From positions 5,150 to 69,149 of the forward strand of contig CAZGRE010000002.1 of assembly GCA_964528085.1 (NCBI GenBank): a DNA stretch of 64,000 bases, written 5' to 3'. The notes under the pieces are model-generated. The model saw only the letters and a list, made by a program, of their open reading frames with translations, had not been told where the DNA came from and made no database searches. The translations under genes were made by a program, and so were the position numbers. The stretch is from an uncultured Thermotogae bacterium (GTDB lineage: Bacteria > Bipolaricaulota > Bipolaricaulia > UBA7950 > UBA9294). This document shows, piece by piece, positions 13,144 through 64,000 of this stretch (positions are counted from its first letter, which is position 1; the number at the start of each line of letters is the position of its first letter).

Positions 13144-13206
13144 TCACAGGATCAGGAAGGAGTGAATGTAGGGTTTCGTGGGGTTACGGGTAAGGGAGGA
13201 GGGCTG

Positions 13207-15417: not shown

Positions 15418-15469
15418 GCGGTTTAATTGCAGTGGTTTTTGGTATGATCCGTAGCTAAGTTAAGGGGGC

Positions 15470-19417: not shown

Positions 19418-19452
19418 GCATGGTCGCGCAAGACGGAAGGGAGGCAAGGAGG

Positions 19453-22179
19453 ATGAAGAGAAAGGCTGTACTGGCGGTTGCGGTGCTGCTCTTGGGCCTC
19501 TCGATCGGCCTCGTTGGGCAGGGGATGGAGGAGTTTGCTGAACTGCACGTCACAAAGATCACCTTAGATCCTCCTTCCACGGTCACCCGCGGGGTGCAGG
19601 TCGAGGTTCATGCACGCGTGATGAACACGGGGACTCGGAGCGCTGATCGGTTCGACATCGGCTTCTTCTATCGGCTTCAGGGTAGCTCGGGGAGCTGGAT
19701 CCTGCTCGACAGGGTGGAGGGGGCGAGCCTTGCCCCGAGCCAGCAGGAGTTCCTCGATGTCGTCTTCGATATGGACACCCTTGATATGGCGCTCGGTACC
19801 TACGAGATCAGGGTTGTGGCCGATCTTACGAACGAAATCCCGGAGGTCGATGAGCTGAACAACGAGCTGCGGACGACGATGACGCTCGTCTCATCCTCGC
19901 TTGGCCTCCCCGACCTTCAGCCGGTAGAGCTGACTTACACCTCGACCAATCCTGGGAGCGACGATGACATGCTCCCCTGGAACGTCACCACGTCGATTAC
20001 GAACCTTGGGGAGGAGCAGGCCGGCCCGTTCAGCGTCGTCTTCCTGATCGAGGGCGTTGAATTCGACCGTAAGTTCCTGTTCGCTCTTCCAGCAGGAGGG
20101 TCGACCGAGCTCGTCGGGGAGCTCGACCCCTACGAGCTCGACCTCGGCCCGGGTTCGTACGAGATCACGGTGAGCGTCGATCCCGACGATGAGGTGAAGG
20201 AACAGGATGAGGCGAACAACGAGATATCCGGCTCGCTCACCCTTCTTTCCCCCGAGCTCTACCCGACGAGCCTCGCCTTCGATCGGTCGATCGTCCGGTT
20301 GGACGAGGAGGTTCAGGTTTCGGCTCAGATCAACAACAGCGGGAAGGGGCCGGCGAGCGGCGTCGAGGTCGCGTTCTACGTGAACCACATCCGGTTCGCC
20401 ACACAGACGATCGAGCTTCTCGACCGCGGGTTGAGCACCGTCGTCTCCGGGACCCTGAATCCGGAGAAGCTCGGGTTGACCGATGCCTCGGCCGTTTACG
20501 AGATCAAGGTCGTCGTCGATCCTGACAACGCATTCGACGAGCTCGACGAGGCGAACAACGAGATGATTCGGCCTCTTACGATACTCGCTCCGGAGCCGAA
20601 GCGGCCGGAGATCCATCCGGAGAGCATCGAGCTGAGCCCTCCTTCCCCGGCTGAACTGGGAAGGGCCGCCACGGTGACGGTGTCGACGGTGATAAAGAAC
20701 ACAGGGAGGGCCGTTGCCGATAGGTTCAACGTCGGCTTCTACTATCGGGTGAAGGGAGGCCTCCGTTGGGAGCTCTTCGCATGCAGTGACGAGGAGAGCT
20801 GCAGCGAGGTCAGCCTCAGCCCTGGAGGGCAGATCAAGCTGGTCGGGAGGCTTCCGATCGCCGCGGTCGGACCGGGGATCTACGAGATCCGTGTCCTCGC
20901 CGATTCACAGGACGTGGTCGACGAGCTCGACGAGACGAACAACGAGCTCGTTACGACGTTGACCCTCCTCGCTTCCCGCCTTCCGGATCTTTCGTTCTGC
21001 ATGATGCAGCCGGTTGTGGTCGAGCCCTCGGTTCAGGTCCAACACGGCCAGACGCTCCGCCTCTCCGCATGCGTGACGAACGTTGGGGATCGGGATGCAG
21101 GGGGATTCCTCATCCGCTTCTCCTACTGCCGCGTGAGCGAGGCGGCCGATGGCGCCCCGGCGTGTACCGAGCCGAGCGAGTACAGGACGGCCTACTTCAC
21201 CCCTGGGGCTGAGGTTGAAGTTCAGGGGCTAGCGATCGGGGAGACTGTCCGGGTTCCGGTGTCCCTTGAGACGCGCGACCTCGATCCGGGTCAGTACAAC
21301 ATCCTTGTCCAGATCGACCCTGCGACCGGCTCAGCGAGCGATGGGATGGTTGAGGAGCGTAACGAGCAGAACAACACGACCGTCGTTCAGGTCTCGGTCC
21401 TCGGACCGGACCTGACCGTCGTCGACTTCCGCTCGGAGCCGGAGAGCATCGTTAATAGCGGTGAATCCGTGGAGGTTTCAGCGACGGTTATGAACATCGG
21501 CGTCGAGCCGGCCGGCGGGTTTACGGTCGGGTTCAAGCTCCTCAGGGTAGGCGAGACGACCGAGCCGGTTCGGATCTGGAGCTGCTCGAACGATGAGGCG
21601 ACCGAGTGCATCGGCCCTGAGTACTTCGGGCAGGCGCGGCTCCCCGGGATCGATGTCCTCGTGCCTGAGGAGGTGCGATGCAGCCTCGATACGAGCGGTA
21701 TTGAGGCGGGTGAATACGTCCTCCGCGTCGAGGTTGACGTGAAGGATGCGGTTGTCGAGCACACCGAGATGAACAACTTCGCTGAGATTCCGCTTTTGAT
21801 CGTCGGCGAAGGGGAGGAGGCCATCAGCGAGGGGGCCGATCTGGCCATCGAATCGTTTCGCATCTATAAGATGGGTATGCGCTCGGACGAAGTGCGGTTA
21901 TGGGTGACGCTCATCAATATAGGGAGCACGGACGTTGGCCCGTTTGAAGTTAGTTTCTTCTGTATAAATTCTTCTGCTGCAGAACCGGTTTTCCTTGGTT
22001 CGTGGACCGTGCGCGGTCTTGCAGCTGGGGCAGAAGTAACAATCGTCCGGTCCTTGAATACGTCGACTCTTTCACCCGGAGCGTATGCTGTGGGAGTTAT
22101 TGTCGATTCTGCGAACGCCATTGTCGAGGTGAATGAGGAGAATAATACACAAGAAGGGACCCTCTGGATCCATTATTAG
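19453..22179 (+). CDS. Secreted protein with about 7 tandem CARDB domains
   Basis: ATG at 19453 after GGGAGG/AGGAGG; signal peptide MKRKAVLAVAVLLLGLSIGLVG; repeats ending DELNNE, DEANNE (twice), DETNNE, NEQNNT, TEMNNF, NEENNT. Confidence 0.75.
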   Translation: MKRKAVLAVAVLLLGLSIGLVGQGMEEFAELHVTKITLDPPSTVTRGVQVEVHARVMNTGTRSADRFDIGFFYRLQGSSGSWILLDRVEGASLAPSQQEFLDVVFDMDTLDMALGTYEIRVVADLTNEIPEVDELNNELRTTMTLVSSSLGLPDLQPVELTYTSTNPGSDDDMLPWNVTTSITNLGEEQAGPFSVVFLIEGVEFDRKFLFALPAGGSTELVGELDPYELDLGPGSYEITVSVDPDDEVKEQDEANNEISGSLTLLSPELYPTSLAFDRSIVRLDEEVQVSAQINNSGKGPASGVEVAFYVNHIRFATQTIELLDRGLSTVVSGTLNPEKLGLTDASAVYEIKVVVDPDNAFDELDEANNEMIRPLTILAPEPKRPEIHPESIELSPPSPAELGRAATVTVSTVIKNTGRAVADRFNVGFYYRVKGGLRWELFACSDEESCSEVSLSPGGQIKLVGRLPIAAVGPGIYEIRVLADSQDVVDELDETNNELVTTLTLLASRLPDLSFCMMQPVVVEPSVQVQHGQTLRLSACVTNVGDRDAGGFLIRFSYCRVSEAADGAPACTEPSEYRTAYFTPGAEVEVQGLAIGETVRVPVSLETRDLDPGQYNILVQIDPATGSASDGMVEERNEQNNTTVVQVSVLGPDLTVVDFRSEPESIVNSGESVEVSATVMNIGVEPAGGFTVGFKLLRVGETTEPVRIWSCSNDEATECIGPEYFGQARLPGIDVLVPEEVRCSLDTSGIEAGEYVLRVEVDVKDAVVEHTEMNNFAEIPLLIVGEGEEAISEGADLAIESFRIYKMGMRSDEVRLWVTLINIGSTDVGPFEVSFFCINSSAAEPVFLGSWTVRGLAAGAEVTIVRSLNTSTLSPGAYAVGVIVDSANAIVEVNEENNTQEGTLWIHY

Positions 22180-22303
22180 CATCGGATATGGAATTTCCTT
22201 CGTCCTTGAGGGGGAGTGCGGCTGAAGGGGGGAGCCGATAACCGGCGGTTCACCTTTTTCTGAAACGAAGGTGGAGCTTTCGGTGTATAGTTGAATAACG
22301 GAG

Positions 22304-22885
22304 GTGAGAGCTGTGAGGCGATATGTTGGTGTTGCGTTGGTCCTTTTGGTCGTGTCAGTAGCTATGTTCAGCGTGGCTGCGGCTACCTCGACGGTTTATG
22401 GAACCCGCTTCAAGGTGGGAGAGACGATCCAGTTCAAGATCGAGGATTCCACGATCTGGTGGGGGGGCTGCTGCTGTTGCACATCCTGTACGGAGACTTC
22501 CGTCCTCGGATGGCATATCACCAACAGCGCAGGGCAGACGATCTACAACGCCATCAATGATGCCCCTGTCCCTGCGTCAAGCTGGGTCGGGACCTGGACG
22601 CAGATCGACGCGAACGACAACCCCGTCGGCGCAGGACAGTACATGCTCTACGTTGATACGTCCATCGGCACGCTGTCGCGCTGTTTCACGATCTACGATC
22701 CGTGCGGGTGTAACTATCCGTACTGGTGTAACGCGTGTACGTGCGAGGAGCTCCCGTCGATAACGAACTGCGGGTGCAAGACGACGCTCGTGTTCGTAGA
22801 TACGTGCCAGAACTGTTATTTCCCGTTCTTCTGGTGGTTCGGATGCTGCTCTTCGCCGTGCAGTAGCTGCGCAGGTTCTCCGTAG
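22304..22885 (+). CDS. Small secreted cysteine-rich protein (20 Cys, CCCC motif); start may be the GTG at 22313
   Basis: GTG starts at 22304/22313 after GGAGG; signal peptide VGVALVLLVVSVAMFSVAAA; mature protein has GGCCCCTSCTE and a C-terminal CGCNYPYWCNACTCEE...CGCK...CQNCYFPFFWWFGCCSSPCSSC. Confidence 0.6.
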   Translation: MRAVRRYVGVALVLLVVSVAMFSVAAATSTVYGTRFKVGETIQFKIEDSTIWWGGCCCCTSCTETSVLGWHITNSAGQTIYNAINDAPVPASSWVGTWTQIDANDNPVGAGQYMLYVDTSIGTLSRCFTIYDPCGCNYPYWCNACTCEELPSITNCGCKTTLVFVDTCQNCYFPFFWWFGCCSSPCSSCAGSP

Positions 22886-49340: not shown

Positions 49341-50429
49341 CTAGCCTCCGCCTTCGAACAGGACCTTGACCCCGCGGCGGCGGAGCTCCTCGATCGCCTT
49401 CCTCTCCGCCGATCCTTCTGTCAGATCGAGGTTTGTACCCCGTAAGTCGAGCTCGTCTCCGGCATCGAGCCCGGGGTTTTCAAGGAGGGGTTCGATGTCG
49501 GTTATTTTCGTCTCCGAAAGGCCGAGGATTCGGATCGAGGCGAGGTGGGAGAGGGGGCTTATCTCCTCGATCGGGTTTCGATCGAGCCAGAGTTTGACGA
49601 GACGGGTCATCCCTGAGAGGGGGGAGATGTCGGATATCGAGTTTCCCCACAGGCTCAGCCGCTGCAGGCGGACGAGGCCTGAGAGGGGGGAGATGTCGGT
49701 TATCCGGTTGTCGCTCAAGCCGAGGCCTTCGAGGTTCGTCAGATTCGACAGCGGGGAGAGATCACTTATCCTGTTGCCTCCCAGGCTTAGCTTGACGAGG
49801 TTCCTGAGCCCAGCGAGGAACGAGATATCATCGATCCCGATGTTCGGCAGGCCGAGCCATTCGAGGTCTGTGAGGCCGGAGAGAGGGGTCGGATCCTCGA
49901 TCGGGTTCCCCCCGAGGCCGAGCTCGGTCAGCCTCGTTAAGCCGGCAAGCGGCGAGACGTCCCTTATCCGGCTGTCCCAAAGCCCGAGCCAAGTGAGGTT
50001 CGTAAGCCCAGAGAGCGGGCCGGCATCGGCGACGGTGTTGAAATCGAGGTCGAGCTTCCGAAGACGGGTGAGCGAGGAGAGAGGGGAGACGTCTTCGACG
50101 TAATTGCTCCTTAAGATCAGCGTCTCAAGCCGCCTGAGCCCTGAGAGCGGGGTAAGATCTGCGATATGGTTCTCGGCCAAGTCAAGGTATCTGAGGTTCC
50201 TGCAGGTCTCGATCCCGTCGAGGTGTGATATTCCCTGATCAGAAGCGGTGAGCTTCGTCAGCCGGAGGAGGTCAAGACGCGTGATCGGGCGGGATTCGAT
50301 TTTGAGCTCGGCGCGAATCGCTGTCTCCAGGTGCGGATCGCGGAAGGGGACGGGTCGCATCCAGATAGAGGCGCTAACAATGATCCCGATGAGTGCAACC
50401 GCGATTATCGCCTTCAGGGAGTCATCCAT
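49341..50429 (-). CDS. Leucine-rich-repeat (internalin-like) protein with N-terminal membrane anchor
   Basis: About 13 consecutive 22-residue LRRs (L..L..L.L..N.I.D.SPLSGLT.L); N-terminal TM AIIAVALIGIIVSASIW. Confidence 0.8.
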   Translation of the reverse strand: MDDSLKAIIAVALIGIIVSASIWMRPVPFRDPHLETAIRAELKIESRPITRLDLLRLTKLTASDQGISHLDGIETCRNLRYLDLAENHIADLTPLSGLRRLETLILRSNYVEDVSPLSSLTRLRKLDLDFNTVADAGPLSGLTNLTWLGLWDSRIRDVSPLAGLTRLTELGLGGNPIEDPTPLSGLTDLEWLGLPNIGIDDISFLAGLRNLVKLSLGGNRISDLSPLSNLTNLEGLGLSDNRITDISPLSGLVRLQRLSLWGNSISDISPLSGMTRLVKLWLDRNPIEEISPLSHLASIRILGLSETKITDIEPLLENPGLDAGDELDLRGTNLDLTEGSAERKAIEELRRRGVKVLFEGGG

Positions 50430-50617: not shown

Positions 50618-51650
50618 ATGGTCAACGAGAGGATAGGGAGTTTGGCCTGGTTGCGCAAGCGGATCGAGCAGGCGGACACGGATCTGTTACGCGAGATGGT
50701 GCAAATGATGGCTGAGGCCCTGATGTCAGCTGAAGTAGATGCGAAGTGCGGTGCACCGTACCACCAACCGAGCGCGGATCGGGTCAACCGACGTAACGGC
50801 TACCGTGGACGTCGTTGGGATACCCGCCTCGGCACGATTGAGCTTGAGATCCCCAAGCTCCGCAAAGGGAGCTACTTCCCCGCGTGGTTGCTGGAACCAC
50901 GCCGTCGCTCGGAACGGGCATTGGTTCAAGTGGTGACCGAGTGCTACGTGCATTATTCCGTACATTGGGGCTGGAAGGGATGAGCAAAAGCCAGGTATCT
51001 GAGCTGGCCAAAGAGCTTGACCCGTTGGTGGAGAGGTTCCGTAACCGTCCGTTGGACAGTAGGTCGTACACGTTCGTCTGGCTCGATGCGATGACGCAGC
51101 GCTGCCGCGATGGTGGAGTGGTGGTGAACGTGGTGACGGTGATCGCCACCGGGGTGAACGGGGACGGTCACCGCGAGATCCTGGGACTGGAGGTGATGAC
51201 GAGCGAGGATGGTACGGGATGGACCGAGTTCTTACGCGGGTTGGTGGCACGTGGGTTGAGTGGGGTAAAGCTCGTCATCTCCGCTGCTCAGCACCGGCGC
51301 GTCGTTGCTGAGCTTGAGCGCAGGTTCCCTTAAGCCGCTGCCATGCTGGACGAGGCGAGAGAAGAGATCCTGGCGTTTTCGGTGTTCCCTGTTGAGGTGT
51401 GGCGGCAGATCTGGTCGAACAACCCGCAGGAGCGGCTGAACCGGGAGATCCGGCGGCGGAGCGATGTGGTTGGATCTTTCCCAACCGGGAATCGATCGTT
51501 CGGTTGGTCGGGGCTGTGCTCGCTGAGTACAACGACGAATGAATGGTCAGCCGCAGGTACATGTCGGTGGGGGTGTTGGAGAAGGCTCAACAGGATGTGA
51601 TCAACGATCCAGAGAAGGAGGGAGCACTGGTCGAGCAGGTCGCCGCTTGA
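50618..51650 (+). mobile_element. IS256-family (Mutator-type) transposase pseudogene; at least 3 frameshifts and an internal deletion; no terminal inverted repeats recognised
   Basis: Three frames carry successive IS256 transposase blocks (RNGYRGRRWDTRLGTIELEIPKLRKGSYFPAWLLEPRRRSERAL / MSKSQVSELAKELDPLVERFRNRPLDSRSYTFVWLDAMTQRCRDGGVVVN...REILGLEV...WTEFLRGLVARGLSGVKLVIS / [41 protein letters not shown]); total length about 344 aa versus about 400 expected. Confidence 0.8.
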
Positions 51651-55209: not shown

Positions 55210-56679
55210 TCAGATTCCCTCTCGCGCGAGGCGTTCCGCCTCGTCCAACAGCTTTTGCACGTCGCTTTCCCGCTCCATCTCACAGTAGAGCCGGAGGATC
55301 GGCTCTGTCCCCGAGGCGCGGAACAGGAGCCATCCCCGATCGAACCGGAGCTTCACGCCGTCTAAGGTCTCGACCGATCGTACAGGCAATCCCGCGAACC
55401 GCTCCGGCGGATCGTCCTTGAGTTTCTCCACGACCTCCAACCGCGCCGGGACGTGGATGTCGCGGCGATGGTAGAATCGCGGTCCGTACTCGTCGAACAG
55501 CGACTGGACGACCTCGCTCATCGGCCGATTTGCGCTCGCCGCGATCTCGGTCAGGAGGAGCGAGCAGAGCACACCGTCGCGCTCGGGGATGTGCCCACTG
55601 ATCGCGATGCTCCCGCTCTCCTCGGCAGCGATCAGGACGTCTCCCCGCTTCAGGATCTGCTCGCAGTGATGCTTGAACCCGATCGGGACGACGATCTGGG
55701 GGAGGCCGTAGTCCTCGCACATGTCGCGCGCCATGTCGGTGAGGTTGAACGAGGTGACGACCGCGCCGCGCATCCCCCTCTCCTCTACAAGGTAGCGGAG
55801 GATGAGGGCGAACGTCCGGTGGGGGTCGATGAACCCCCCGCGCTCGTCCATCGCCGAGATCCGGTCGCCGTCGCCGTCGGTCACCACACCGATCAACCGC
55901 TTCTTCTTAGGACGGAGCGATGCGATCACCGCGCGCAAGGGGACGAGGTTCTCCTCGAGCGGCTCCGGCTTTACCCCCCCGAAGAGGGGATCGCGCCGGG
56001 CGCGGATCTCGGTGTAGGGGACGCGATTCTCGCTCAGGATCTCGGCGACCCACCCCTGCGCCGAGCCGTACATCGAATCGATCACGACGTGCACCGGGGA
56101 GGCCTTCAGCCGCGCCGGATCGATGAGCGCTCGGATCTTGTCGAGGAACGGCGCCCGCAGGTCGACCTGCGGGATCGCTTCATTCGGACTGCGAGGCACG
56201 GGGTTCTGTCCGCGCAGGTTCGCCACGACCCCGTCGGTCACCTCTTCCGGTGCGGATCCGCCGTACTCGGCCTTGTACTTGATCCCGTTATAGACTGGGG
56301 GGTTGTGGGAGGCGGTGATCACGATCCCGGCGGCGGCACGGCGGTCGACGACCGCGTAGGAGACGGCCGGGGTGGTGACGGGCGTGTCCGCGACCACGAC
56401 CGGGATCCCGGAGTCGTAGAGGACCCTGGCGAAGTGGTGAGCGAACTCCCGCGACAGGAACCGCATGTCGTAGCCGACCACGACCCCGTCCTCCGCCGGA
56501 CGGTACTCCGCCCCCCAGTCGGTGTAGATCAAAAGCTTATCCCGATCAGCGGAAGGGAGGAACCTCCCCGTCGCCGCGGCGACCCGACCGACGTTCGCGA
56601 ACGTGAAATCGCGGGCGATGATCCCGCGCCACCCGTCCGTCCCGAACCGGACGGGCTCATCTGCGCTTCGTCTTCCCAC
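55210..56679 (-). CDS. Phosphoglucomutase/phosphomannomutase family protein
   Basis: Active-site serine motif TASHNP; alpha-D-phosphohexomutase four-domain layout. Confidence 0.85.
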
Positions 56680-56935
56680 TTCTCTTTCCCCTTTGCTTAA
56701 GGCGCGAGGTCATGTTGATCCGCTCGACGTTCTCCGGAAGCTTCAGATCGTCACGGCGGAGGATCTCCTCGAGGAGGGTATAAGGGAGGGAGGTCTCGAT
56801 CCAGATCGAGTCGATATCGACGACCCCATTCCGCACCGGAACGCGAGGGATGACCCGTTCGACCGCCTCCTTGTACCGGAGCGACATCCCCTCCCCACCG
56901 GGACGATACCCGTCGGTCTCTTCTTCGGTAACCAT
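56657..56935 (-). CDS. Small hypothetical protein (92 aa) upstream of the phosphohexomutase
   Basis: ATG at 56935 with GAAGGGGA RBS; basic C-terminal tail; overlaps the phosphohexomutase start by 23 nt; the ORF-track N-terminal extension to 57229 is Arg-rich low complexity. Confidence 0.45.
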   Translation of the reverse strand: MVTEEETDGYRPGGEGMSLRYKEAVERVIPRVPVRNGVVDIDSIWIETSLPYTLLEEILRRDDLKLPENVERINMTSRLKQRGKRSGKTKRR

Positions 56936-57123: not shown

Positions 57124-59280
57124 GTGATAAAACGGCTGATAGTCTTGTTCCTTTTCGCGATCGCACTCCTTTCGTTCTGTGCGCTCGCCTCCCTCGATCA
57201 GAGCGATCTCGCGCGCCTCGATCCGGCACTCAGGGCAGCGCTCATCACGAGCGAGGGTGGAAACTCCCCCCAGGGTTTCCTCTACCCGCTGTTCGATTCA
57301 GAGCGCTTTCAGATCACGTTCTCCCCATCGACCGGCGAGGCGAAGATTGGCGTCCTGGTGAAGGTGGACCGGCCGATCCCTGGGATGGCGTACGCCGGGA
57401 TACCGATCCGGGGGAAGGCCGGCTCGATAATCAGCCTTTCGGTCAGCCTCGGCGAGCTCTATCGACTCGCAGAGGACGATGACGTCGTCTACATCGAGCC
57501 GGCGTGGAAGACATCCCCCAAGCTCGACTACAGCGTCCCGGCGATCGGGGCGGCCGAGGTCCATGCGGCCTCCCCGCCGGTCATCGGGGAGGGGGCGATC
57601 GTCGGGCTGGTCGACACGGGGATAGACTACACGCACCTTGACTTCCGCTATGATTCGGATGGGGATGGATTCGAGGAATCCTCTCGGATCCTTGCAATCT
57701 GGGATCAGACGTGGGGGCTCCTCGGTGCGAGCTACGACAGGACAGAGATCGAGGAGGATATCGCCCTCGGCTACGGCTCTGGGGAGGGGGCGGTCCGCGA
57801 GTCGGATACGGACGGGCATGGGACGCACGTCGCGAGCATCGCAGCCGGGGATGGGTCCTCTTCTCCCTACGGGTTCGTCGGGGTCGCTCCCGGAGCCGAC
57901 ATCATCGCTGTAAAGACCTCGTTCTACACCTCGGACATCCTCTCCGGGGTCGAGTACATCTTCGATCGGGCGACGGAACTGAACCGGCCGGCCGTTGTCA
58001 ACCTCAGCCTCGGCGGGCACGAAGGACCGCACGACGGGACGAGCCTGTTCGAGGAGGGACTCGACCGGCTCGCCGTCGGGCCGGGGAGGGCGATCGTCGT
58101 CTCGGCCGGGAACGAGGGTGACGAGAAGATTCATGCCTCCTCCACCCTGAACGGGGGCGCATTCACGTTCGAGGTGATCCCGGACGATTGGGAGATCGAG
58201 CTCAACATCTGGTACCCCGGATCGTCCGAGTTCACGATAACGGTCGTCTCTCCCTCGGATCTGCCGACCATTGCCCCGAAGGGGACGAACACCGGTCCGG
58301 TCCTCACCCCGGACGGAATCGTGTACATCGACAATGCATCGGCCGGTGTCAACCCGAACAACGGGGACAACGAGGGGTTCATCAGGCTGACCAATGTGAC
58401 GCGGGGGGACCGCTGGCGGGTCGTGATAACCGATACGGACGGCGGCGGGAGGTTCGACGCGTGGATCTCGAGCGGATCTGCGAGGATCGCAGGCGGGGAT
58501 TCAAACTCCACGATCGACGAACCGGGAAACGCACACCGCGTGATTACGGTCGGGGCGTTTACGACCAAGGCGGCATGGCCGTCGCAGGCGGGGGAGGAGG
58601 ACTTCTCCGCCGACTACACCGTGGGGGCGATCGCCTACTTCTCGAGCCGAGGGCCGACGCGCGACGGGAGGACGAAGCCGGACCTCGCCGCCCCGGGAGC
58701 GTGGATCTGCGCCGCCCGCTCGGCGGACGCAACGGCGTACTCCTACCTCCTCCACCCCGATGGGAAGCACATGATCGAACTCGGAACGAGCATGGCCGCA
58801 CCGCACGTGGCGGGGGCGCTCGCCCTCCTCTTCTCCCTCGATCCCGATCTGACCGCCGATGAGGCGAGGGGGATCCTGACCTCGACGGCACGGGAGGATT
58901 ACTTCACGGGTGCGACCCCGAACGACATCTGGGGATGGGGGAAGATCGACGTCACAGGGGCGGTGGCGAGTGTCGAGCCGCCCGAGCCGGTGAATCCGCC
59001 GGAGGAGGATCTCCCTTCGATCTCGCTCGAGGAGAATCCGGCCGTCGATGCGGCCCGGTTCACCTACGAGACCCCGGACGGTGCGACAGAAGCGACCCTC
59101 CGGATCTACACGGTGAGTGGAAGGCTCGTCTTTGCGGTCGATCTCCCTCCGGGGGATGGGGCCTATAGGTGGAACCTGACATCGCTGCGCGGGGAGAGGC
59201 TCGCCGCCGGGCTCTACCTCTACGTCCTCGTCACCGACCGGGGAATATCGGAGGTCGGAAGGCTGGTGATCGAACGATGA
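57124..59280 (+). CDS. Secreted subtilisin-like (S8) protease with C-terminal T9SS-type sorting domain (Por_Secre_tail / FlgD Ig-like)
   Basis: GTG start after GAGGGGGG; signal peptide; catalytic D (VGLVDTGID), H (HGTHVASI) and S (GTSMAAPHVAG); last about 70 aa (ATLRIYTVSGRLVFAVDLPPGDGAYRWNLTSLRGERLAAGLYLYVLVTDRGISEVGRLVIER) match the T9SS CTD consensus. Confidence 0.8.
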   Translation: MIKRLIVLFLFAIALLSFCALASLDQSDLARLDPALRAALITSEGGNSPQGFLYPLFDSERFQITFSPSTGEAKIGVLVKVDRPIPGMAYAGIPIRGKAGSIISLSVSLGELYRLAEDDDVVYIEPAWKTSPKLDYSVPAIGAAEVHAASPPVIGEGAIVGLVDTGIDYTHLDFRYDSDGDGFEESSRILAIWDQTWGLLGASYDRTEIEEDIALGYGSGEGAVRESDTDGHGTHVASIAAGDGSSSPYGFVGVAPGADIIAVKTSFYTSDILSGVEYIFDRATELNRPAVVNLSLGGHEGPHDGTSLFEEGLDRLAVGPGRAIVVSAGNEGDEKIHASSTLNGGAFTFEVIPDDWEIELNIWYPGSSEFTITVVSPSDLPTIAPKGTNTGPVLTPDGIVYIDNASAGVNPNNGDNEGFIRLTNVTRGDRWRVVITDTDGGGRFDAWISSGSARIAGGDSNSTIDEPGNAHRVITVGAFTTKAAWPSQAGEEDFSADYTVGAIAYFSSRGPTRDGRTKPDLAAPGAWICAARSADATAYSYLLHPDGKHMIELGTSMAAPHVAGALALLFSLDPDLTADEARGILTSTAREDYFTGATPNDIWGWGKIDVTGAVASVEPPEPVNPPEEDLPSISLEENPAVDAARFTYETPDGATEATLRIYTVSGRLVFAVDLPPGDGAYRWNLTSLRGERLAAGLYLYVLVTDRGISEVGRLVIER

Positions 59281-60122
59281 ACGGCTTCAGAGGGCTTGCC
59301 CTCGTTGCATTGATCCTCCTTCTCAGCGCGTTCTCCGCCGGAGCTGTGGAGAACGTCGGTGGGCTATTCGACATCGGAATCTCGGCCCGCGGGGAGGGGC
59401 TCGGGGGAGGATACTCAGCGCTCGTCGACGACGAGACGGCCGTCCTCTACAACCCCGCTGCCCTCGGATGGTATAAGGGGTTGGGTCTCTCCTCGATCTT
59501 CACCCGCCAGTTCGGGGTAGCGTCGTACGGATCGATCGGGTTGGCCGGCTCGTACGTCGGGATCGATCTTCTCTTCCTCGAGTCAGGACCGATCTCATCG
59601 GGAGACGATACGTTCAACTACGCGAGCCAAGGGATCGTCGCTGCGATCGGGATTCCGCTCGGGAACGCCGCTGTCGGCATCCGATGGCGGTATCTCAACG
59701 TATCATCCCCGTTCACTGGAAGCGGGTGGGCGATCGATCCGGCCATCCTCGTCGTCACCGACACCGTCCGGGTCGCCCTCCTCTACGAAGGGGCGGCATC
59801 CGCACCGGTCGGCTACAGCACGGGGGGGAGCGATCCCTGGGAGAGCTCCCTCCGGCTCGGCCTCGCCCTCACCCTCAGCCCGACCCCGGGCGTCCTGTGG
59901 AACGCGACGTTCGAGGCCTCAGGCCTCTTCTCGTCCGCCTCCGCTCTCTCCGGCGGAATCGAGTCATGGATCGGGGGGATCGGCGCGCGCATCGGCTACG
60001 ACGGGGACGGCCCGACGTTCGGATTGTCGATTCGGTTCACCGCCCTGGAGATCGACTGGGCTTACACGACGCGGAGCGATCTCGGCGATACCCACCGCGT
60101 CTCCCTCTCCCTCAGGTTTTAG
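59277..60122 (+). CDS. FadL/PorV-like outer-membrane beta-barrel protein
   Basis: ATG overlaps the protease stop (ATGA); signal peptide; N-terminal block GEGLGGGYSALVDDETAVLYNPAALGW matches the FadL/PorV plug motif; amphipathic beta strands ending in an aromatic residue (SLSLRF). Confidence 0.55.
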   Translation: MNGFRGLALVALILLLSAFSAGAVENVGGLFDIGISARGEGLGGGYSALVDDETAVLYNPAALGWYKGLGLSSIFTRQFGVASYGSIGLAGSYVGIDLLFLESGPISSGDDTFNYASQGIVAAIGIPLGNAAVGIRWRYLNVSSPFTGSGWAIDPAILVVTDTVRVALLYEGAASAPVGYSTGGSDPWESSLRLGLALTLSPTPGVLWNATFEASGLFSSASALSGGIESWIGGIGARIGYDGDGPTFGLSIRFTALEIDWAYTTRSDLGDTHRVSLSLRF

Positions 60123-60133
60123 AAGGCGACTGC

Positions 60134-63100
60134 ATGCTGAGATCATTACGGAAGATAGCGATAGCCGGCCTCCTCATCGCCTCCATCGCCGCCCCCCTCC
60201 TCGGGGGAGATGACGAACCGTTCACCACCGAGATAACCGGGCGAAAGACGTGGACGATCCGCTATGGGTTCGGTGATCCGATCGGGCTTGCAGCCGCCGG
60301 CCTCGCGCCGGGGCAGATCAGCCTCGATCAGACGCTCGCCGTCGACATCCACGGCGAGGCGCTCTCCGTCCTGACGATCGAGGGGCACTTCGACGATCAG
60401 CAGCCGGAGAGCATGCAGTCCCTGACCGTCTACCTCGATACCGACCGCCTGGACGGATCGTTCGGGGATTTCACCCTCGAGGGGCTCTCTCCGTTCGCCG
60501 TGCATCGGCGGAAGATGAAAGGGGGGAGGCTCGACTACGAGATAGGGAACGCCACGATAACCGCTATCGGTTCTCGGTTCGAAGGGATCACCGAATCGAA
60601 GACGTTCATCGGTTCGACCTCCTCCGCTCAAGTCCTCTACTCCGCATCCCTCCCGGACCGGCCGTGGGTCCCCCAGCCGTATGCAAGGAACATCGAAGGG
60701 TTGTACGCATATCCGCTCTCCATCACCTACGTCGAGGACTTCACCGACGTCACCCTCTCCCTTCCGGTGACAAGCGGGGTCGAATCGATCCTCGCCGAGT
60801 ACTCCCTCTCCTACCTGACCGATTGGCTGAGCGCGAATCAACAGGAAAAGATCGATGAGAAGAAGTTCGCAGTCGTCGGGGACGAGCAGCAGACCCTCGT
60901 ATTGAAGGTGAGGCCGATCGACCTTCTCCGCAGCCGGATAAAGGAGGGGATCGACGCCTACAACCGGGAGAACGCCCTCTCCGGATCGGAGGGGATGATC
61001 TACCCGTTCAACGAAGGGTCGGAATATGAGCTTTCATTCCTAACAGCCCTTTCCCAATCGGCGAAGCTCCTCGTCGACTCGGAGGAACACGAATTGATGA
61101 ACGGCATCCTCCGGCGGTTCTACGATCTCGGCCAGACGGGGATCGTGAGCGATTCCCTCCTCGTCGAGGTCAGCCGCGACGGGATGACGTTCACCTCCAT
61201 CTCCCATCCCGATTATGCCGATTACAAGGTAGAGGTATATCCGGACGAGGGGATGATCGAGGTCGATTTCCCCGATGATTTCTTCGCGGAACCGGCCCGG
61301 GCGTTCCGCGTCTCGTTCTCGTACTCGGTCTCCGGTGGGACGTACTCGCTCGGCTTCTCCCTCGTCCCGGGGAGCGAGCGGGTGACGCTGAACGGGGAGG
61401 TCCTGACGCGTGATACGGATTACATGATCGACTACGAGGCCGGGCTCCTCGTCCTCCTCGTTGAGGTGAAGAATAACGATGTGATCCAGGTCGACTACGA
61501 GAGGTTCACCGGCGGCCTTGGGAGCGGGGCCGATTACGCGCGCTACTTCTACGGGATCTTGCTCGACCTCCCGATCTCGGAGGGGTTCTCTCTCGTCGGC
61601 CGGCTGGTGGAGACGGCCGACGATCCCCGCTCGATCGCCGATCCGGAGTCGGCGAGGACGATGCCGAACCGGCATACGGTCGGCGGGATCGTCGGCTCGA
61701 TCTCCCTCCCTGACTTCATCGGATCGTTCACCATCGGGTACGGCCGCGACCGGTTCCCGTTCGACGACAACCTCCGCGCTCCCCGACCGAACAGGATTCA
61801 TACGATCGCCGCCGGAGGGGGATACGTATTCGCCGGGCATGCCGCCGGGCTGAGCGCCTACCGAGACGGGGAATGGCGCGCCTACGGGGTCGGCGACGGC
61901 CTCTCCGGCCGGGATGTCCGTGCGATCGCTGTCATAGATGACCGCGCCTACATCGGGACCGGCTCCGGCCTGACGGTCGTCTCCCTGATCGGGGTAGCGC
62001 CGCTCGACAGGGTCGACAGCTGGGACCGCTACTACGAGGAGGACGGGCTTCCGGACGACTCCCTCCGCTCCCTCATCCTCCACGACGGTCGGCTCTGGAT
62101 CGGGACCGACGCGGGCCTCGCCTCCGTCCCGGTGGACGAGATCGATGACCCGTCCGCCTGGGTCTCCTACAGCAATGAACGGCTGATCGGCCTCGGCGGG
62201 ATACTCTCCCTCGCCGCTGACGGGGATTACATCTACCTCGGGACGGGGGCCGGGCTTTACCGTTTTTCCCCCGACGATGGGGGGATCACCCTCCTTCCCG
62301 GGACAGAGGGGGCGCGGATCTTTGCCCTTTACCTTGCGGGAGGGACGTTATACGCCGGTTCAGACCGGGGCCTTCGCGCCTTCCGATCCGGGATCGGAGC
62401 GGGGTGGCTCACCATCGGCGAGCCGGTCTACGCCATCGGCGCCATTGACGGGGAGATCTATTACGGGACGGACGACGGCCTCGTCCGGGGAGCGGACGGG
62501 AAGAGGTTATACCGCGGCTGGACGATCACAGCGATCGGGAGCACTCCGGACGGCTCCCTCTGGGTCGGGACCGAGGCGGACACGGACTACACCCTCTTCA
62601 TCTGGCGGCTGGACGAGAGGGAGGAGGGATTCGACAACGAGACGGCGAAGATCAGCGGCGAGGACCCTTCCGGTTTCCTCGACATCCCTGCCGACGAGCA
62701 CACCTCCCGCGGCGGGTTGATCCGCGCCTCGTTCGACCGGTCGGGCGATCGGTTCTCCCTTTCTGGAAGGGTGGAGAGCATCTCCCCCGGATATTCGGCG
62801 ATCGGGAGCTTCGGCCGCCAGGATACAGCCGGCTGGGAGCTCGATGGGACGGTCGAGCTGTGGGAGGGGGCGGGGCTTTCCGCTTCCCACAGCTATCATA
62901 TGGACGATCTCCACTCCGGTTCACCCCGCGCACGGCTGGAGAACGACGTCTCGTTCTCCGCTTCGTTCGGGCCGGAGCTCTCTCTATCAGCCCATCAGGA
63001 GAGCGTCGATACCGATCCCCACCGCCGAGGGGCGGAGACGAGCTACCTCTCCTACCGGTTCTCCCTCGCCGATGCCCTGTTCGATGACGCACTTCACCTC

Positions 63101-64000
63101 TCCCTCTCCTGGAATGACGGGTTCACGAACGATCGGGACTACGGGACGAAGCGGAGGGAGAACTCCCTCTCCGCTGATGTCGATCTCTCCCTGTCGCCTT
63201 CGCTTTCGTTCTCAGGGAGCTGGTCGCGGCCGATACAGGTGCAGGACGGCAATTGGAGCGGCCAGGAGAGTTGGGGGTTCACCGCCCACGGTGAGGGGAG
63301 GGTCCCGCTCGTATCAGGGAGGCTCGACTACGAGGCTCACCGGACGCGTGCCCTGCCGGATGGGGAGTACCGGACCGAGCACAAGGTCGAGATCGGGTTC
63401 GACTTCGATCCGTTCGAGCTCGTCGGCTGGCGGCTGATACCGAGGAGCGACCTCACGATCGAACGGAAGGATAACGAAACGGACCTCTCCGGAAGGGCGA
63501 TCGTCAACGCCACCTTGGATGCACTCACCGTTCGCACGACGCTGAGCGGGAGCGTATCGAGCCTCGGAGCCCCGCTGCGAGAGGAGTCGGGGAAGGTATC
63601 GGTCTCCATCAACTACAGCGGGATCGAGGGGCTTCGCCCCTCTCTCACCTATACCCAGAATCGGAAGAGGAAGATCTACGAAGGGGTGGATAGGCTCTCG
63701 TCGGTCGACCACTCCTTAAACGGGAGATTGACCTGGTCAGGGAGGGATGGAGAGAGCGATCGGCTCTCCTTCACCGTCCGCGTGAGTGAGAGCGATGGCG
63801 CTCCCCGGGTGAACGGCTCGATCGATAACTCCTATCAGATCGATCTCAGCGATCGAATTCCCTCCCTTTACGGAGAAAAGTTAGAGTCGGGGTTTCCGAC
63901 CCTCAACCTGACGATAGACACCTCGGGGGATTACCGGTTCGACGGGGAGGAACCGGATATCTCCGTGACGGTCAAGGGGAGGTTCGACATCGGCCTCTCC
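60134..64000 (+). CDS. Giant exported protein (>1288 aa, continues past the window end) with Reg_prop (two-component-regulator propeller)-like repeats and a beta-rich C-terminal region
   Basis: ATG at 60134; signal peptide MLRSLRKIAIAGLLIASIAAPLLG; GC3-biased codons throughout 60134-64000; repeats YIGTGSGLTVVS / LWIGTDAGLASV / IYLGTGAGLYRF / LYAGSDRGLRAF / IYYGTDDGLVRG; absent from the ORF track because it has no stop in the window. Confidence 0.65.
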   Translation, partial: MLRSLRKIAIAGLLIASIAAPLLGGDDEPFTTEITGRKTWTIRYGFGDPIGLAAAGLAPGQISLDQTLAVDIHGEALSVLTIEGHFDDQQPESMQSLTVYLDTDRLDGSFGDFTLEGLSPFAVHRRKMKGGRLDYEIGNATITAIGSRFEGITESKTFIGSTSSAQVLYSASLPDRPWVPQPYARNIEGLYAYPLSITYVEDFTDVTLSLPVTSGVESILAEYSLSYLTDWLSANQQEKIDEKKFAVVGDEQQTLVLKVRPIDLLRSRIKEGIDAYNRENALSGSEGMIYPFNEGSEYELSFLTALSQSAKLLVDSEEHELMNGILRRFYDLGQTGIVSDSLLVEVSRDGMTFTSISHPDYADYKVEVYPDEGMIEVDFPDDFFAEPARAFRVSFSYSVSGGTYSLGFSLVPGSERVTLNGEVLTRDTDYMIDYEAGLLVLLVEVKNNDVIQVDYERFTGGLGSGADYARYFYGILLDLPISEGFSLVGRLVETADDPRSIADPESARTMPNRHTVGGIVGSISLPDFIGSFTIGYGRDRFPFDDNLRAPRPNRIHTIAAGGGYVFAGHAAGLSAYRDGEWRAYGVGDGLSGRDVRAIAVIDDRAYIGTGSGLTVVSLIGVAPLDRVDSWDRYYEEDGLPDDSLRSLILHDGRLWIGTDAGLASVPVDEIDDPSAWVSYSNERLIGLGGILSLAADGDYIYLGTGAGLYRFSPDDGGITLLPGTEGARIFALYLAGGTLYAGSDRGLRAFRSGIGAGWLTIGEPVYAIGAIDGEIYYGTDDGLVRGADGKRLYRGWTITAIGSTPDGSLWVGTEADTDYTLFIWRLDEREEGFDNETAKISGEDPSGFLDIPADEHTSRGGLIRASFDRSGDRFSLSGRVESISPGYSAIGSFGRQDTAGWELDGTVELWEGAGLSASHSYHMDDLHSGSPRARLENDVSFSASFGPELSLSAHQESVDTDPHRRGAETSYLSYRFSLADALFDDALHLSLSWNDGFTNDRDYGTKRRENSLSADVDLSLSPSLSFSGSWSRPIQVQDGNWSGQESWGFTAHGEGRVPLVSGRLDYEAHRTRALPDGEYRTEHKVEIGFDFDPFELVGWRLIPRSDLTIERKDNETDLSGRAIVNATLDALTVRTTLSGSVSSLGAPLREESGKVSVSINYSGIEGLRPSLTYTQNRKRKIYEGVDRLSSVDHSLNGRLTWSGRDGESDRLSFTVRVSESDGAPRVNGSIDNSYQIDLSDRIPSLYGEKLESGFPTLNLTIDTSGDYRFDGEEPDISVTVKGRFDIGLS

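Follow-up and report, generated by a model that had tools for sequence, protein, structure and literature searches.

Three adjacent genes at a Bipolaricaulota locus

The window, by which we mean the whole 64-kb stretch of DNA that was analysed, belongs to a MAG that record titles assign to Bipolaricaulota (Acetothermia/OP1). Near its end lie three open reading frames (ORFs) on the forward strand, all of them present where an earlier sequence-only reading had placed them. The features of the locus are as follows:

57124 to 59280, + strand: gene for an S8 (subtilisin-family) serine protease with C-terminal sorting domain (CTD), 718 aa (Pfam Peptidase_S8)
59014 to 59277, + strand: type A-like CTD of a type IX secretion system (T9SS), aa 631-718 of the protease (TIGR04183)
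59277 to 59280, + strand: ATGA overlap of the protease stop (TGA) and the barrel start (ATG), read in the sequence
59277 to 60122, + strand: compact PorV/PorQ-like outer-membrane barrel of FadL fold, 281 aa (NCBIfam PorV/PorQ)
60134 to 64000, + strand: gene for an SprA/Sov-like protein of the outer membrane, cut by the window end so that aa 1-1288 of 1324 are covered
60233 to 61717, + strand: N-terminal region of the large protein, aa 34-528, sharing homology with the N-terminal portion of SprA-like proteins (hhalign)
61778 to 62695, + strand: Reg_prop-type beta-propeller inserted in the large-protein barrel, about aa 549-854 (Pfam, PDB profile)
62702 to 64000, + strand: C-terminal long antiparallel strands of the large protein, aa 857 onward (AF2 model)

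Bipolaricaulota are described as atypical diderms with a toga-like outer membrane and an S-layer, and no LPS genes were found in one closed genome examined (PMC6092417; bioRxiv 10.1101/2025.11.21.689855; bioRxiv 10.1101/2021.05.31.446380).

An S8 protease with a T9SS-like sorting domain

The first gene starts with GTG, is preceded by GAGGGGGG, and encodes a protein whose N-terminus, MIKRLIVLFLFAIALLSFCALA, reads as signal-peptide-like. Pfam Peptidase_S8 matches at E 4.3e-50, its 171 bits far exceeding the 21.8-bit cutoff, and among solved structures the germination protease CspB (4i0w) comes nearest, at E 6e-32. D164, H232 and S556, the catalytic residues, do not vary among 57 orthologues, 55 of which also keep the oxyanion Asn. 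Because the triad never varies, the protease looks active and we predict that it is.

The sequence-only reading had recognized a Por secretion CTD at the end of this protease, and model searches agree. In the full-length protein, the T9SS type A sorting domain model TIGR04183 scores 21.5 bits against a cutoff of 23, and the isolated 90-aa tail reaches 25.6 bits. The match spans aa 638-716 of 718, with a matching C-terminal stretch of ~88 aa. At E<=0.01, TIGR04183 matches the tails of all 38 orthologous proteases examined; 33 of these tails also resemble the CTD portion of the PorZ model and 25 that of the PorU model. Pfam Por_Secre_tail (PF18962) matches 9/38 tails at E<=0.01, a threshold at which the window protease has no match, and Pfam FlgD_ig matches 32/38. 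The domain lies at the extreme C-terminus of a protein with an N-terminal Sec signal peptide, and this position is the same in all orthologues. By analogy, we propose that secretion of the protease would depend on both its CTD and a translocon.

Such a domain could instead be a generic FlgD-type Ig domain. If so, the locus might encode no secretion system, its barrels would serve hydrophobic-compound uptake or envelope-lipid and outer-membrane biogenesis, and the clustering would reflect a shared envelope function only. We regard this as very improbable. The CTD does score comparably on FlgD_ig, and the T9SS models score under their cutoffs on all of the full proteins (SprA 27/200, PorV_fam 38/90, CTD 21.5/23), which we count against reading the locus as a secretion module. 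Nevertheless, the proteins with a CTD are all exported, each has it at its very C-terminus, and all the CTDs match TIGR04183.

Custom CTD HMMs run on all six-frame ORFs of the window match the S8 protease alone, as the earlier reading had supposed, and find no further CTD proteins in most of ~0.85 Mb of related loci. Others do occur: L004 encodes a PKD protein and a 407-aa protein with CTDs, and in L078 an ORF with signal peptide and CTD overlaps the gene for a CARDB protein. That the protease may be a dedicated substrate, as the earlier reading suggested, is plausible, although other CTD proteins are present in some Bipolaricaulota.

A compact PorV/PorQ-like barrel

Besides a signal peptide, the 281-aa product of the second gene has a hatch motif in its N-terminal part and, at the C-terminus, a beta-signal (...SLSLRF). 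It matches the NCBIfam PorV/PorQ family (NF033709) at E 1.8e-9, its 37.6 bits lying under the cutoff of 90, and all 33 barrel orthologues match the same model, the best at E 1.3e-15. The Pfam PorV model (PF19572) has no match in the window barrel; a relative with 26% identity, P0205, passes it. The sequence-only reading left room for a FadL transporter as the alternative to a PorV-type shuttle. The best structural and HMM matches are to PorV/PorQ rather than FadL: FadL/Toluene_X (PF03349) has no match in the window barrel at E<=1, and FadL-type NCBIfam models match 0/33 orthologues. With FadL/TodX transporters it has only the fold in common. Use of alkanes has been reported for a cultured member of the phylum (bioRxiv 10.1101/2025.11.21.689855), which speaks for hydrophobic-compound uptake, but the uniform failure of the orthologues to match FadL models speaks against it. 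With 38/38 CTDs matching TIGR04183 and 33/33 barrels matching PorV/PorQ, the earlier proposal of a T9SS-like cargo and a PorV-like shuttle outside the classical Bacteroidetes is supported.

The large protein is a remote homologue of SprA/Sov

The third ORF begins with ATG at 60134 and stays open to the window end, giving 1288 aa. The earlier reading described its product as an uncharacterised giant of open length, and neither part of this description survives. A database protein, P0001, is 100% identical and ends after 1324 aa (...LELTVSAQF), which leaves just 36 aa outside the window; and the protein is SprA/Sov-like, which makes it the very gene that had been proposed for a search elsewhere in the genome.

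The large protein carries a signal peptide. SprA model TIGR04189 matches it at E 4.6e-7 over one 65-aa stretch (27.4 bits, cutoff 200) and matches 27/32 of its orthologues, and the family profile matches SprA in the PDB (6h3i_A, E 6.6e-5). For the N-terminal region, when the family profile (A1) is aligned by hhalign with that of a group of 1.6-2.2 kaa SprA-like proteins (A7), the probability is 99.8% and E is 3.4e-28 over 437 aligned columns; three A7 proteins run against TIGR04189 reach 150-198 bits. Searching with a profile built from the first 557 positions likewise brings up proteins of 1.7-2.2 kaa, at E 1e-21 to 1e-31. Sequence homology to SprA is thus found in a protein that stays under the TIGR04189 cutoff and short of the ~2300-2400 aa length.

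Structure points the same way. An AF2 model of aa 25-1224 (pLDDT 84.5) has three SprA chains, 8gl6_A, 8gl8_A and 6h3i_A, as its top Foldseek matches in the PDB (E 6.5e-19 to 5.4e-16), ahead of propeller-only matches (4.5e-12), Deinococcus SlpA (1.8e-8) and LptD (about 5e-8); the TM-scores of the SprA matches are only moderate, at 0.35-0.38. Residues 34-528 comprise barrel strands with an inserted alpha/beta and beta-sandwich region. The propeller noted by the sequence-only reading is confirmed by Pfam Reg_prop (25.5 bits) and by PDB profiles of Bacteroides hybrid-kinase propellers (E 1.9e-23); it probably acts as a cap, a placement taken from strand parity only. Twenty consecutive long strands occupy residues 833-1196 of the model, Pfam OMP_b-brl_3 gives a weak match, and the C-terminal strands from aa 857 onward are modelled as the bulk of the giant barrel wall. 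The model omits the last 100 residues, and barrel closure, strand number and lateral opening fall outside its view. Overall, the large protein is remotely homologous to SprA/Sov, which is the T9SS translocon; it has about half the size and carries an inserted Reg_prop propeller.

Gene linkage and conservation across the phylum

Among 52 non-redundant loci with sufficient upstream sequence, 49 have the three genes together. They stay together in a different genomic context in L004 and, in the distant L074, in another order (large protein, S8-CTD protein, PorV-like barrel). The ATGA overlap between protease and barrel reported from the window is indeed seen there, and a 4-base overlap of this kind is inferred, with start codons chosen heuristically, in some 50 of 57 related, non-redundant loci, indicating a predicted translational coupling of the two genes. 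In L038 the S8 and PorV-like genes are duplicated in tandem as a pair, and in a second such pair in L004 the PKD protein with a CTD overlaps a PorV-like paralogue by 4 bases. Conservation of the set extends across Bipolaricaulota, which lie far from Bacteroidota.

Not all linkage is of this kind. Four relatives of the large protein (L006, L032, L035 and L066) have no adjacent S8 and PorV genes. SprA-like genes adjoin lptF/lptG in three lineages, are divergently paired with them in L075-L077, and in L032 neighbour a gene for a fusion of LptF/G permease and LptA/LptD_N-like domain. These neighbours hint at a possible envelope-lipid connection instead and would suit a role in outer-membrane biogenesis. 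Against that role, three independent T9SS-specific signatures (CTD, PorV/PorQ and SprA) occur in one operon and remain together despite changes of context and order, so chance or generic envelope clustering fails as an explanation. In addition, pairs of a CTD protein and a PorV-like barrel recur with different cargo types, namely S8, PKD and M6.

The T9SS motor and ring genes (GldK/L/M/N, SprE and SprT) were not seen in the 64-kb window or in the <=10-kb flanks of related loci, which counts against a T9SS-like module. Could the trio then be only the outer-membrane part of a standard T9SS that is complete but sits in a new phylum, with GldK/L/M/N, SprE/PorW, SprT/PorT and others encoded elsewhere? 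In that case the module would be neither minimal nor different in mechanism. T9SS genes are scattered in Bacteroidota, sprA and porV being 'loner' genes in the TXSScan model (defined by GldK, GldL, GldM, GldN, SprA, SprE, SprT, PorU, PorV and PorQ), and for this reason the lack of motor genes from the window says little. However, TXSScan finds T9SS in Bacteroidetes only, reviews restrict it to Bacteroidota or the FCB group (PMC7463736 among them), and the literature searched holds no paper linking T9SS components to Bipolaricaulota and no description of the three-gene module. Moreover, the proteins are so divergent and so reduced (1324 versus about 2400 aa, 281 versus about 400 aa) that the standard partner set is not expected. 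We consider a complete T9SS improbable.

A proposed compact module for export and anchoring

The homologies, folds, operon structure and phylum-wide conservation are observed. We think it fairly probable that the trio is one operon whose products make up a compact module for export and anchoring in the outer membrane of Bipolaricaulota, resembling type IX secretion. What we infer concerns its physical interactions, transport direction, surface anchoring and energy source. All three products would reach the periplasm by their Sec signal peptides. The 1324-aa SprA/Sov homologue would form a very large beta-barrel with an inserted propeller, and the 281-aa protein a minimal PorV/PorQ-type barrel of FadL fold. 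By analogy with Bacteroidota, the type A-like CTD would target the S8 protease through the SprA-like pore, after which the PorV-like barrel would take up the protease and hold it on the cell surface. Adjacency and coupling of the genes are seen directly; that the PorV-like barrel may bind CTDs and dock at a lateral opening of the SprA-like protein is argued by analogy. Attachment to A-LPS, canonical for type A cargo, cannot apply where no LPS genes are found, and this is a point against the proposed module.

A CTD-bearing peptidase gene followed by a porV-like gene mirrors porU-porV of Bacteroidota, the trio as a whole being a parallel to porU-porV plus sprA, and the surface protease could therefore feed the cell, process other CTD proteins, or both. 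Feeding would mean acquisition of peptides and amino acids, a natural role given that one closed Bipolaricaulota genome is reported to have a single extracellular protease and a dependence on amino acids (PMC6092417).

The single extracellular protease and the amino-acid dependence weigh against a second view of the machinery, in which the S8 protease is a built-in component, a non-homologous functional analogue of the C-terminal signal peptidase PorU. An uncleaved CTD would seat the protease on the PorV-like barrel, where it would clip the CTDs of CARDB, PKD and S-layer-type proteins. The gene order argues for this view, as does the retention of a CTD by PorU itself, which PorV anchors. Near-universal retention with pore and barrel and strict translational coupling fit a housekeeping enzyme better than a nutritional one, the closest relatives are CspB-type processing subtilases, and the PorU and PorZ models, in their CTD segments, match the protease CTD as well. 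Potential clients exist in L004 (the PKD and 407-aa proteins) and in the ORF of L078. Conversely, PorU is of C25 type and has no relationship to S8 proteases, the window and most of the related loci contain no added CTD proteins, and in L004 another CTD protein comes with a PorV-like partner of its own, a sign of cargo paired with anchor more than of one processing enzyme for all. We therefore find a built-in processing protease rather unlikely.

T9SS has been thought confined to Bacteroidota, and the trio is conserved in the distant Bipolaricaulota. More tentatively, the SprA-PorV pore and shuttle together with CTD targeting might be an ancient outer-membrane export device that predates, or is independent of, the gliding/T9SS motor of Bacteroidota, and that in Bipolaricaulota is self-contained in three proteins, working in an LPS-free, toga-like outer membrane with a serine protease instead of the cysteine sortase PorU; we hold this possible, at somewhat unfavourable odds. 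The wider superfamily of the large protein comprises 1443 cluster representatives, including a 'Bacillota' MAG protein and 1.7-kaa forms adjoining lptFG. If the idea is right, giant barrels of the SprA type would form a class of outer-membrane translocon that is general among diderm bacteria and has been overlooked.

Comparison with known systems

The large protein resembles SprA/Sov (TIGR04189; PDB 6H3I, 6H3J, 8GL6, 8GL8) in its homologous N-terminal ~500 residues, in being a very large outer-membrane beta-barrel with SprA chains as best PDB structural matches, and in the adjacency of its gene to those for a PorV-type barrel and a CTD protein. Characteristic of SprA/Sov is a giant barrel of 36 strands that has a cap and opens both laterally and to the periplasm. 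The Bipolaricaulota protein differs in size (1324 versus about 2400 aa), in score (27 bits against 200) and in host, which is Terrabacteria-side, toga-bearing and devoid of detected LPS genes, whereas SprA/Sov T9SS belongs to Bacteroidota. It also has a Reg_prop propeller, in contrast to the 1.6-2.2 kaa SprA-like group, whose alignment consensus (the basis of this contrast, rather than SprA itself) has Asp-rich repeats and no propeller match.

The second protein is likewise smaller than PorV/PorQ (NF033709, PF19572; PDB 6H3I chain F), at 281 versus about 390-400 aa and 37.6 bits against 90; given this length, most of the extracellular loop mass is missing. Unlike FadL/TodX channels, it is shorter, lacks a FadL/Toluene_X model match and has a CTD protease and an SprA-like barrel as partners. 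Its coupling to one CTD protein brings it nearer to the dedicated PorP/SprF shuttles of type B cargo than to general PorV. Cargo-shuttle gene pairs with cognate PorP/SprF are common for type B CTDs (PMC12618676); the protease CTD, by contrast, is type A-like.

In P. gingivalis, porU lies beside porV, the F. johnsoniae orthologues of the two have consecutive locus tags, and the peptidase PorU is anchored by PorV with its CTD still in place (PMC5445135; PMC7463736). The Bipolaricaulota peptidase differs from PorU in being a CspB-type S8 serine rather than a C25 cysteine peptidase, and sortase-like transfer to A-LPS is unexpected with no LPS genes found. It shares with PorU-PorV and the type B pairs an arrangement in which the gene for a CTD surface protein adjoins that for the outer-membrane barrel that holds it, or in Bipolaricaulota would hold it.

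A compact operon encoding three exported proteins

The sequence contains three ORFs on the forward strand, running from 57124 to the end of the window, that form a tightly coupled operon:

57124-59280 (+), S8 protease gene; 718 aa; GTG start with upstream sequence GAGGGGGG; signal-peptide-like N-terminus
59277-60122 (+), small barrel gene; 281 aa; start lies within the protease stop, ...CGATGAACGG, an ATGA overlap
60134-64000 (+), large protein gene; ATG start 11 bases past the barrel gene; open at base 64000

The sequence-only reading described the third product as an open-ended giant protein, which proves not to be the case. All 1288 of its in-window residues are identical to those of a database protein (P0001) that is 1324 aa long and ends ...LELTVSAQF, and therefore only 36 residues are missing from the window. 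The G+C content of the region (0.64-0.66, versus ~0.62 overall) is in line with the rest of the window, and relatives down to 43% identity keep the same leuS-PGM ... thiS-metG-L21-L27-obg neighborhood. This uniform composition and common gene context led us to reject contamination or a recent horizontal island. A scan of the sequence for sigma-70 promoters and intrinsic terminators found none above shuffled expectation. Between the phosphoglucomutase-like and protease genes lies a conserved 92-aa ORF (56660-56935, -) that has no family match and is also present at two related loci (L001 and L002).

The large protein is a relative of SprA

The first hints to the identity of the large protein were a single Reg_prop repeat detected by Pfam and a weak match to TIGR04189, the SprA/Sov model (E 4.6e-7). 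SprA is, to our knowledge, the largest outer-membrane barrel made from a single chain. Four further lines of evidence agree with the initial hints. Specifically, a profile built from 32 family members and compared with the PDB matches SprA (E 6.6e-5), in addition to strong propeller matches. Furthermore, an AF2 model of residues 25-1224 (pLDDT 84.5) places three SprA chains at the top of a Foldseek search (E 6.5e-19 to 5.4e-16, TM 0.35-0.38). When the N-terminal 557-position profile was searched against 1.84 billion cluster representatives, 1443 proteins were recovered at E<=1e-3, with the 1.3-1.4 kaa family itself ranking first, followed by proteins of 1.6-2.2 kaa. On TIGR04189, whose cutoff is 200 bits, three of these longer proteins reach 150, 190 and 198. 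Finally, hhalign aligns residues 34-528 of the large-protein family with residues 124-600 of the 1.6-2.2 kaa SprA-like proteins over 437 columns (99.8% probability, E 3.4e-28). The TIGR04189 model is also matched individually by 27 of 32 orthologues.

Structural readings are taken from AF2 models and search summaries. In the model, nine strands at the N terminus are followed by an alpha/beta insert, four long strands, the propeller, and then 20 long strands. The Foldseek matches ranking below SprA are to propellers only (4.5e-12), Deinococcus SlpA (1.8e-8) and LptD (~5e-8). LptD, BamA/TamA, SlpA and TonB-dependent receptors were each considered as identities for the large protein and rejected, given Foldseek E values about 10 or more orders weaker than those of SprA and no support from sequence.

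A PorV-like barrel and a protease with a putative C-terminal sorting domain

The small barrel has no Pfam match, and its hit to the NCBIfam PorV/PorQ family (E 1.8e-9) falls under the cutoff. Its orthologues are more informative: 33 of 33 match the PorV/PorQ family model (best 1.3e-15) as well as the PorV2 and PorQ models, and none of the 33 matches FadL models. From these profile comparisons we predict a minimal barrel of FadL fold, grouping with PorV/PorQ. Grouping with true FadL transporters, the outcome that would have counted against the sequence-only reading, is not seen.

The protease belongs to Pfam Peptidase_S8 (E 4.3e-50), and its closest solved structures are the CspB-type germination (processing) subtilases (E 6e-32). 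Its catalytic residues (D164, H232, S556) do not vary among 57 orthologues, and we therefore predict that the enzyme is active. The last ~88 residues score 21.5 bits on TIGR04183, the C-terminal sorting domain (CTD) model for type IX secretion systems (T9SS), when scanned within the full protein, and 25.6 bits when scanned alone (cutoff 23). Every orthologous tail (38 of 38) matches this model; 33 of them also match the CTD portion of the PorZ model, and 25 match the corresponding portion of the PorU model. Pfam assigns these 38 tails to FlgD_ig (32), CHU_C (23) and Por_Secre_tail (9). The protease tail, judging from these profiles, is best classed as a divergent, type A-like CTD that sits on the borderline of curated thresholds. 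A CTD-profile search of a large protein database returned only 13 proteins, all short, and does not represent a genome-wide count of CTDs.

Distribution and linkage of the three genes

Genomic context was read from the loci of relatives. Scanning a single genome for each GTDB species yielded 67 loci, almost all titled Bipolaricaulota, Acetothermia or 'uncultured Thermotogae' MAGs, and the named homologues of all three proteins come from Candidatus Bipolaricaulota/Acetothermia MAGs. Because their sequences share 40-50% identity and synteny, we infer that the MAGs labelled 'uncultured Thermotogae', a submitter's label, belong to the same phylum as Bipolaricaulota. The operon is conserved through this phylum. 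The S8-CTD and PorV-like genes lie directly upstream of the large gene in 49 of the 52 non-redundant loci where at least 3.3 kb precedes that gene. Protease and barrel genes are inferred, from start codons picked heuristically, to share the 4-base ATGA overlap in ~50 of 57 loci.

Linkage also persists where the arrangement varies. At L004 (33% identity) the three genes reside in another context, near ftsH, dxr and exosortase genes. The more distant L074 has the large gene first, then S8-CTD and then PorV-like. In L038 (2-6004, +) the protease and PorV-like genes are tandemly duplicated as a unit ahead of the large gene (S8-PorV-S8-PorV-large). The opposite strand of L004 carries a second pair, in which the gene for a PKD protein with the same CTD overlaps that of a 328-aa PorV-like paralogue by 4 bases. 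L077 has a 402-aa PorV-like barrel and, after it, a CTD-bearing M6 peptidase, 2 kb from an SprA-like gene. L006, L032, L035 and L066 are exceptions, in that the S8 and PorV-like genes are missing beside the large gene.

A 1340-aa relative of the large protein (P0104; L006 1719-5741, +; 26% identity) occurs in MAGs labelled Bacillota/Firmicutes (ADurb.Bin153), and therefore the family reaches other Terrabacteria-labelled lineages. Its gene adjoins Germane, DegV and V-ATPase genes, without protease or barrel genes. In three lineages, SprA-like genes are divergently paired with lptF/lptG (L032 1909-5124, -; L075 7351-9530, -; L077 7708-9896, -). The neighbor in L032, an Acetothermia MAG, is a single 1072-aa protein in which an LptF/G permease is fused to an LptA/LptD_N-like domain. 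The adjacency thus recurs in a phylum without reported LPS genes.

Other features of the window

At 13162-22179 (+), three large proteins encoded in succession (751, 1315 and 919 aa) carry many CARDB repeats and propeller/PQQ-like segments, and two of them begin with signal-peptide-like segments. None of the three contains a CTD. A cysteine-rich exported ORF immediately after these genes (22295-22882, +) exhibits a marginal internal CTD/FlgD-Ig likeness (E 0.06) that was judged insignificant. L078, from another Bipolaricaulota genome, has a 113-aa ORF that overlaps a CARDB gene by 4 bases and comprises a signal peptide and a CTD-like domain; this ORF recalls PorA, a small CTD-only T9SS protein.

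An IS256/Mutator-family transposase is split over three reading frames at 50618-51600 (+), with pieces corresponding to positions 11-113, 118-245 and 311-358 of the 379 in PF00872. This is a decayed insertion sequence, located between leuS and the gene for a leucine-rich-repeat protein, where G+C falls locally to 0.58 and GC skew is high. The latter protein (49341-50429, -) has 362 aa, a hydrophobic N-terminal segment and a Pfam LRR_4 match of E 4e-50.

A possible route for protease display

Two products of the operon are predicted outer-membrane barrels with homology to the pore and shuttle of the T9SS; the third is a predicted active protease carrying a T9SS-type C-terminal domain. By analogy with the Bacteroidota system (PMC7463736, PMC5445135), the protease would fold in the periplasm and its CTD would steer it into the SprA-like barrel. 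Next, the CTD would be bound by the PorV-like barrel, which would carry the protease out to the surface and keep it bound there. Translational coupling points to production at roughly 1:1. Since 13 strands precede the propeller in the model, strand parity suggests that this domain might cap the extracellular side of the large barrel.

The protease/PorV-like gene pair mirrors porU-porV of Bacteroidota. In P. gingivalis these genes are 75 bp apart, and PorU retains its CTD and is anchored by PorV (PMC5445135). Given this resemblance, the protease may be a cell-displayed feeding enzyme, a CTD-processing enzyme, or both.

Relationship to known type IX secretion systems

T9SS has been regarded as restricted to Bacteroidota or the FCB group (reviews, including PMC7463736), and TXSScan detections of it were limited to Bacteroidetes, where 60 of 97 genomes had it. 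Our full-text literature search, combining T9SS with Bipolaricaulota and covering SprA-like, PorV-like and T9SS-like systems, returned no account of this three-gene module, and database copies of its proteins that have a name are called 'hypothetical protein'. Bipolaricaulota is the sister group of Thermotogae among diderm Terrabacteria and uses Omp-alpha/Omp-beta tethering (bioRxiv 10.1101/2021.05.31.446380). In the closed genome of Ran1, no LPS genes were found and only one extracellular protease is encoded (PMC6092417). For the first isolate of the phylum, a toga-like outer membrane and an S-layer are described (bioRxiv 10.1101/2025.11.21.689855).

Conservation of this operon through a whole phylum on the Terrabacteria side of the bacterial tree would shift the point where the pore, shuttle and CTD core arose to outside the FCB group. 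The operon would also offer a stripped-down natural system for defining the minimal needs of CTD-dependent export, including any dependence on a GldLM-type motor and on A-LPS attachment. Moreover, it would be the first concrete candidate for placing proteins on the toga-like outer membrane of Bipolaricaulota, an idea that can be tested experimentally now that a cultured strain exists.

The module is a reduced form of the T9SS pore, shuttle and CTD core. It differs from the Bacteroidota system in its peptidase class and inserted propeller, and in its host, an unrelated phylum with no reported LPS genes. Compared with SprA, the large protein is about half the size, and it is encoded in one operon with a PorV-like barrel of minimal size and just one CTD protease.
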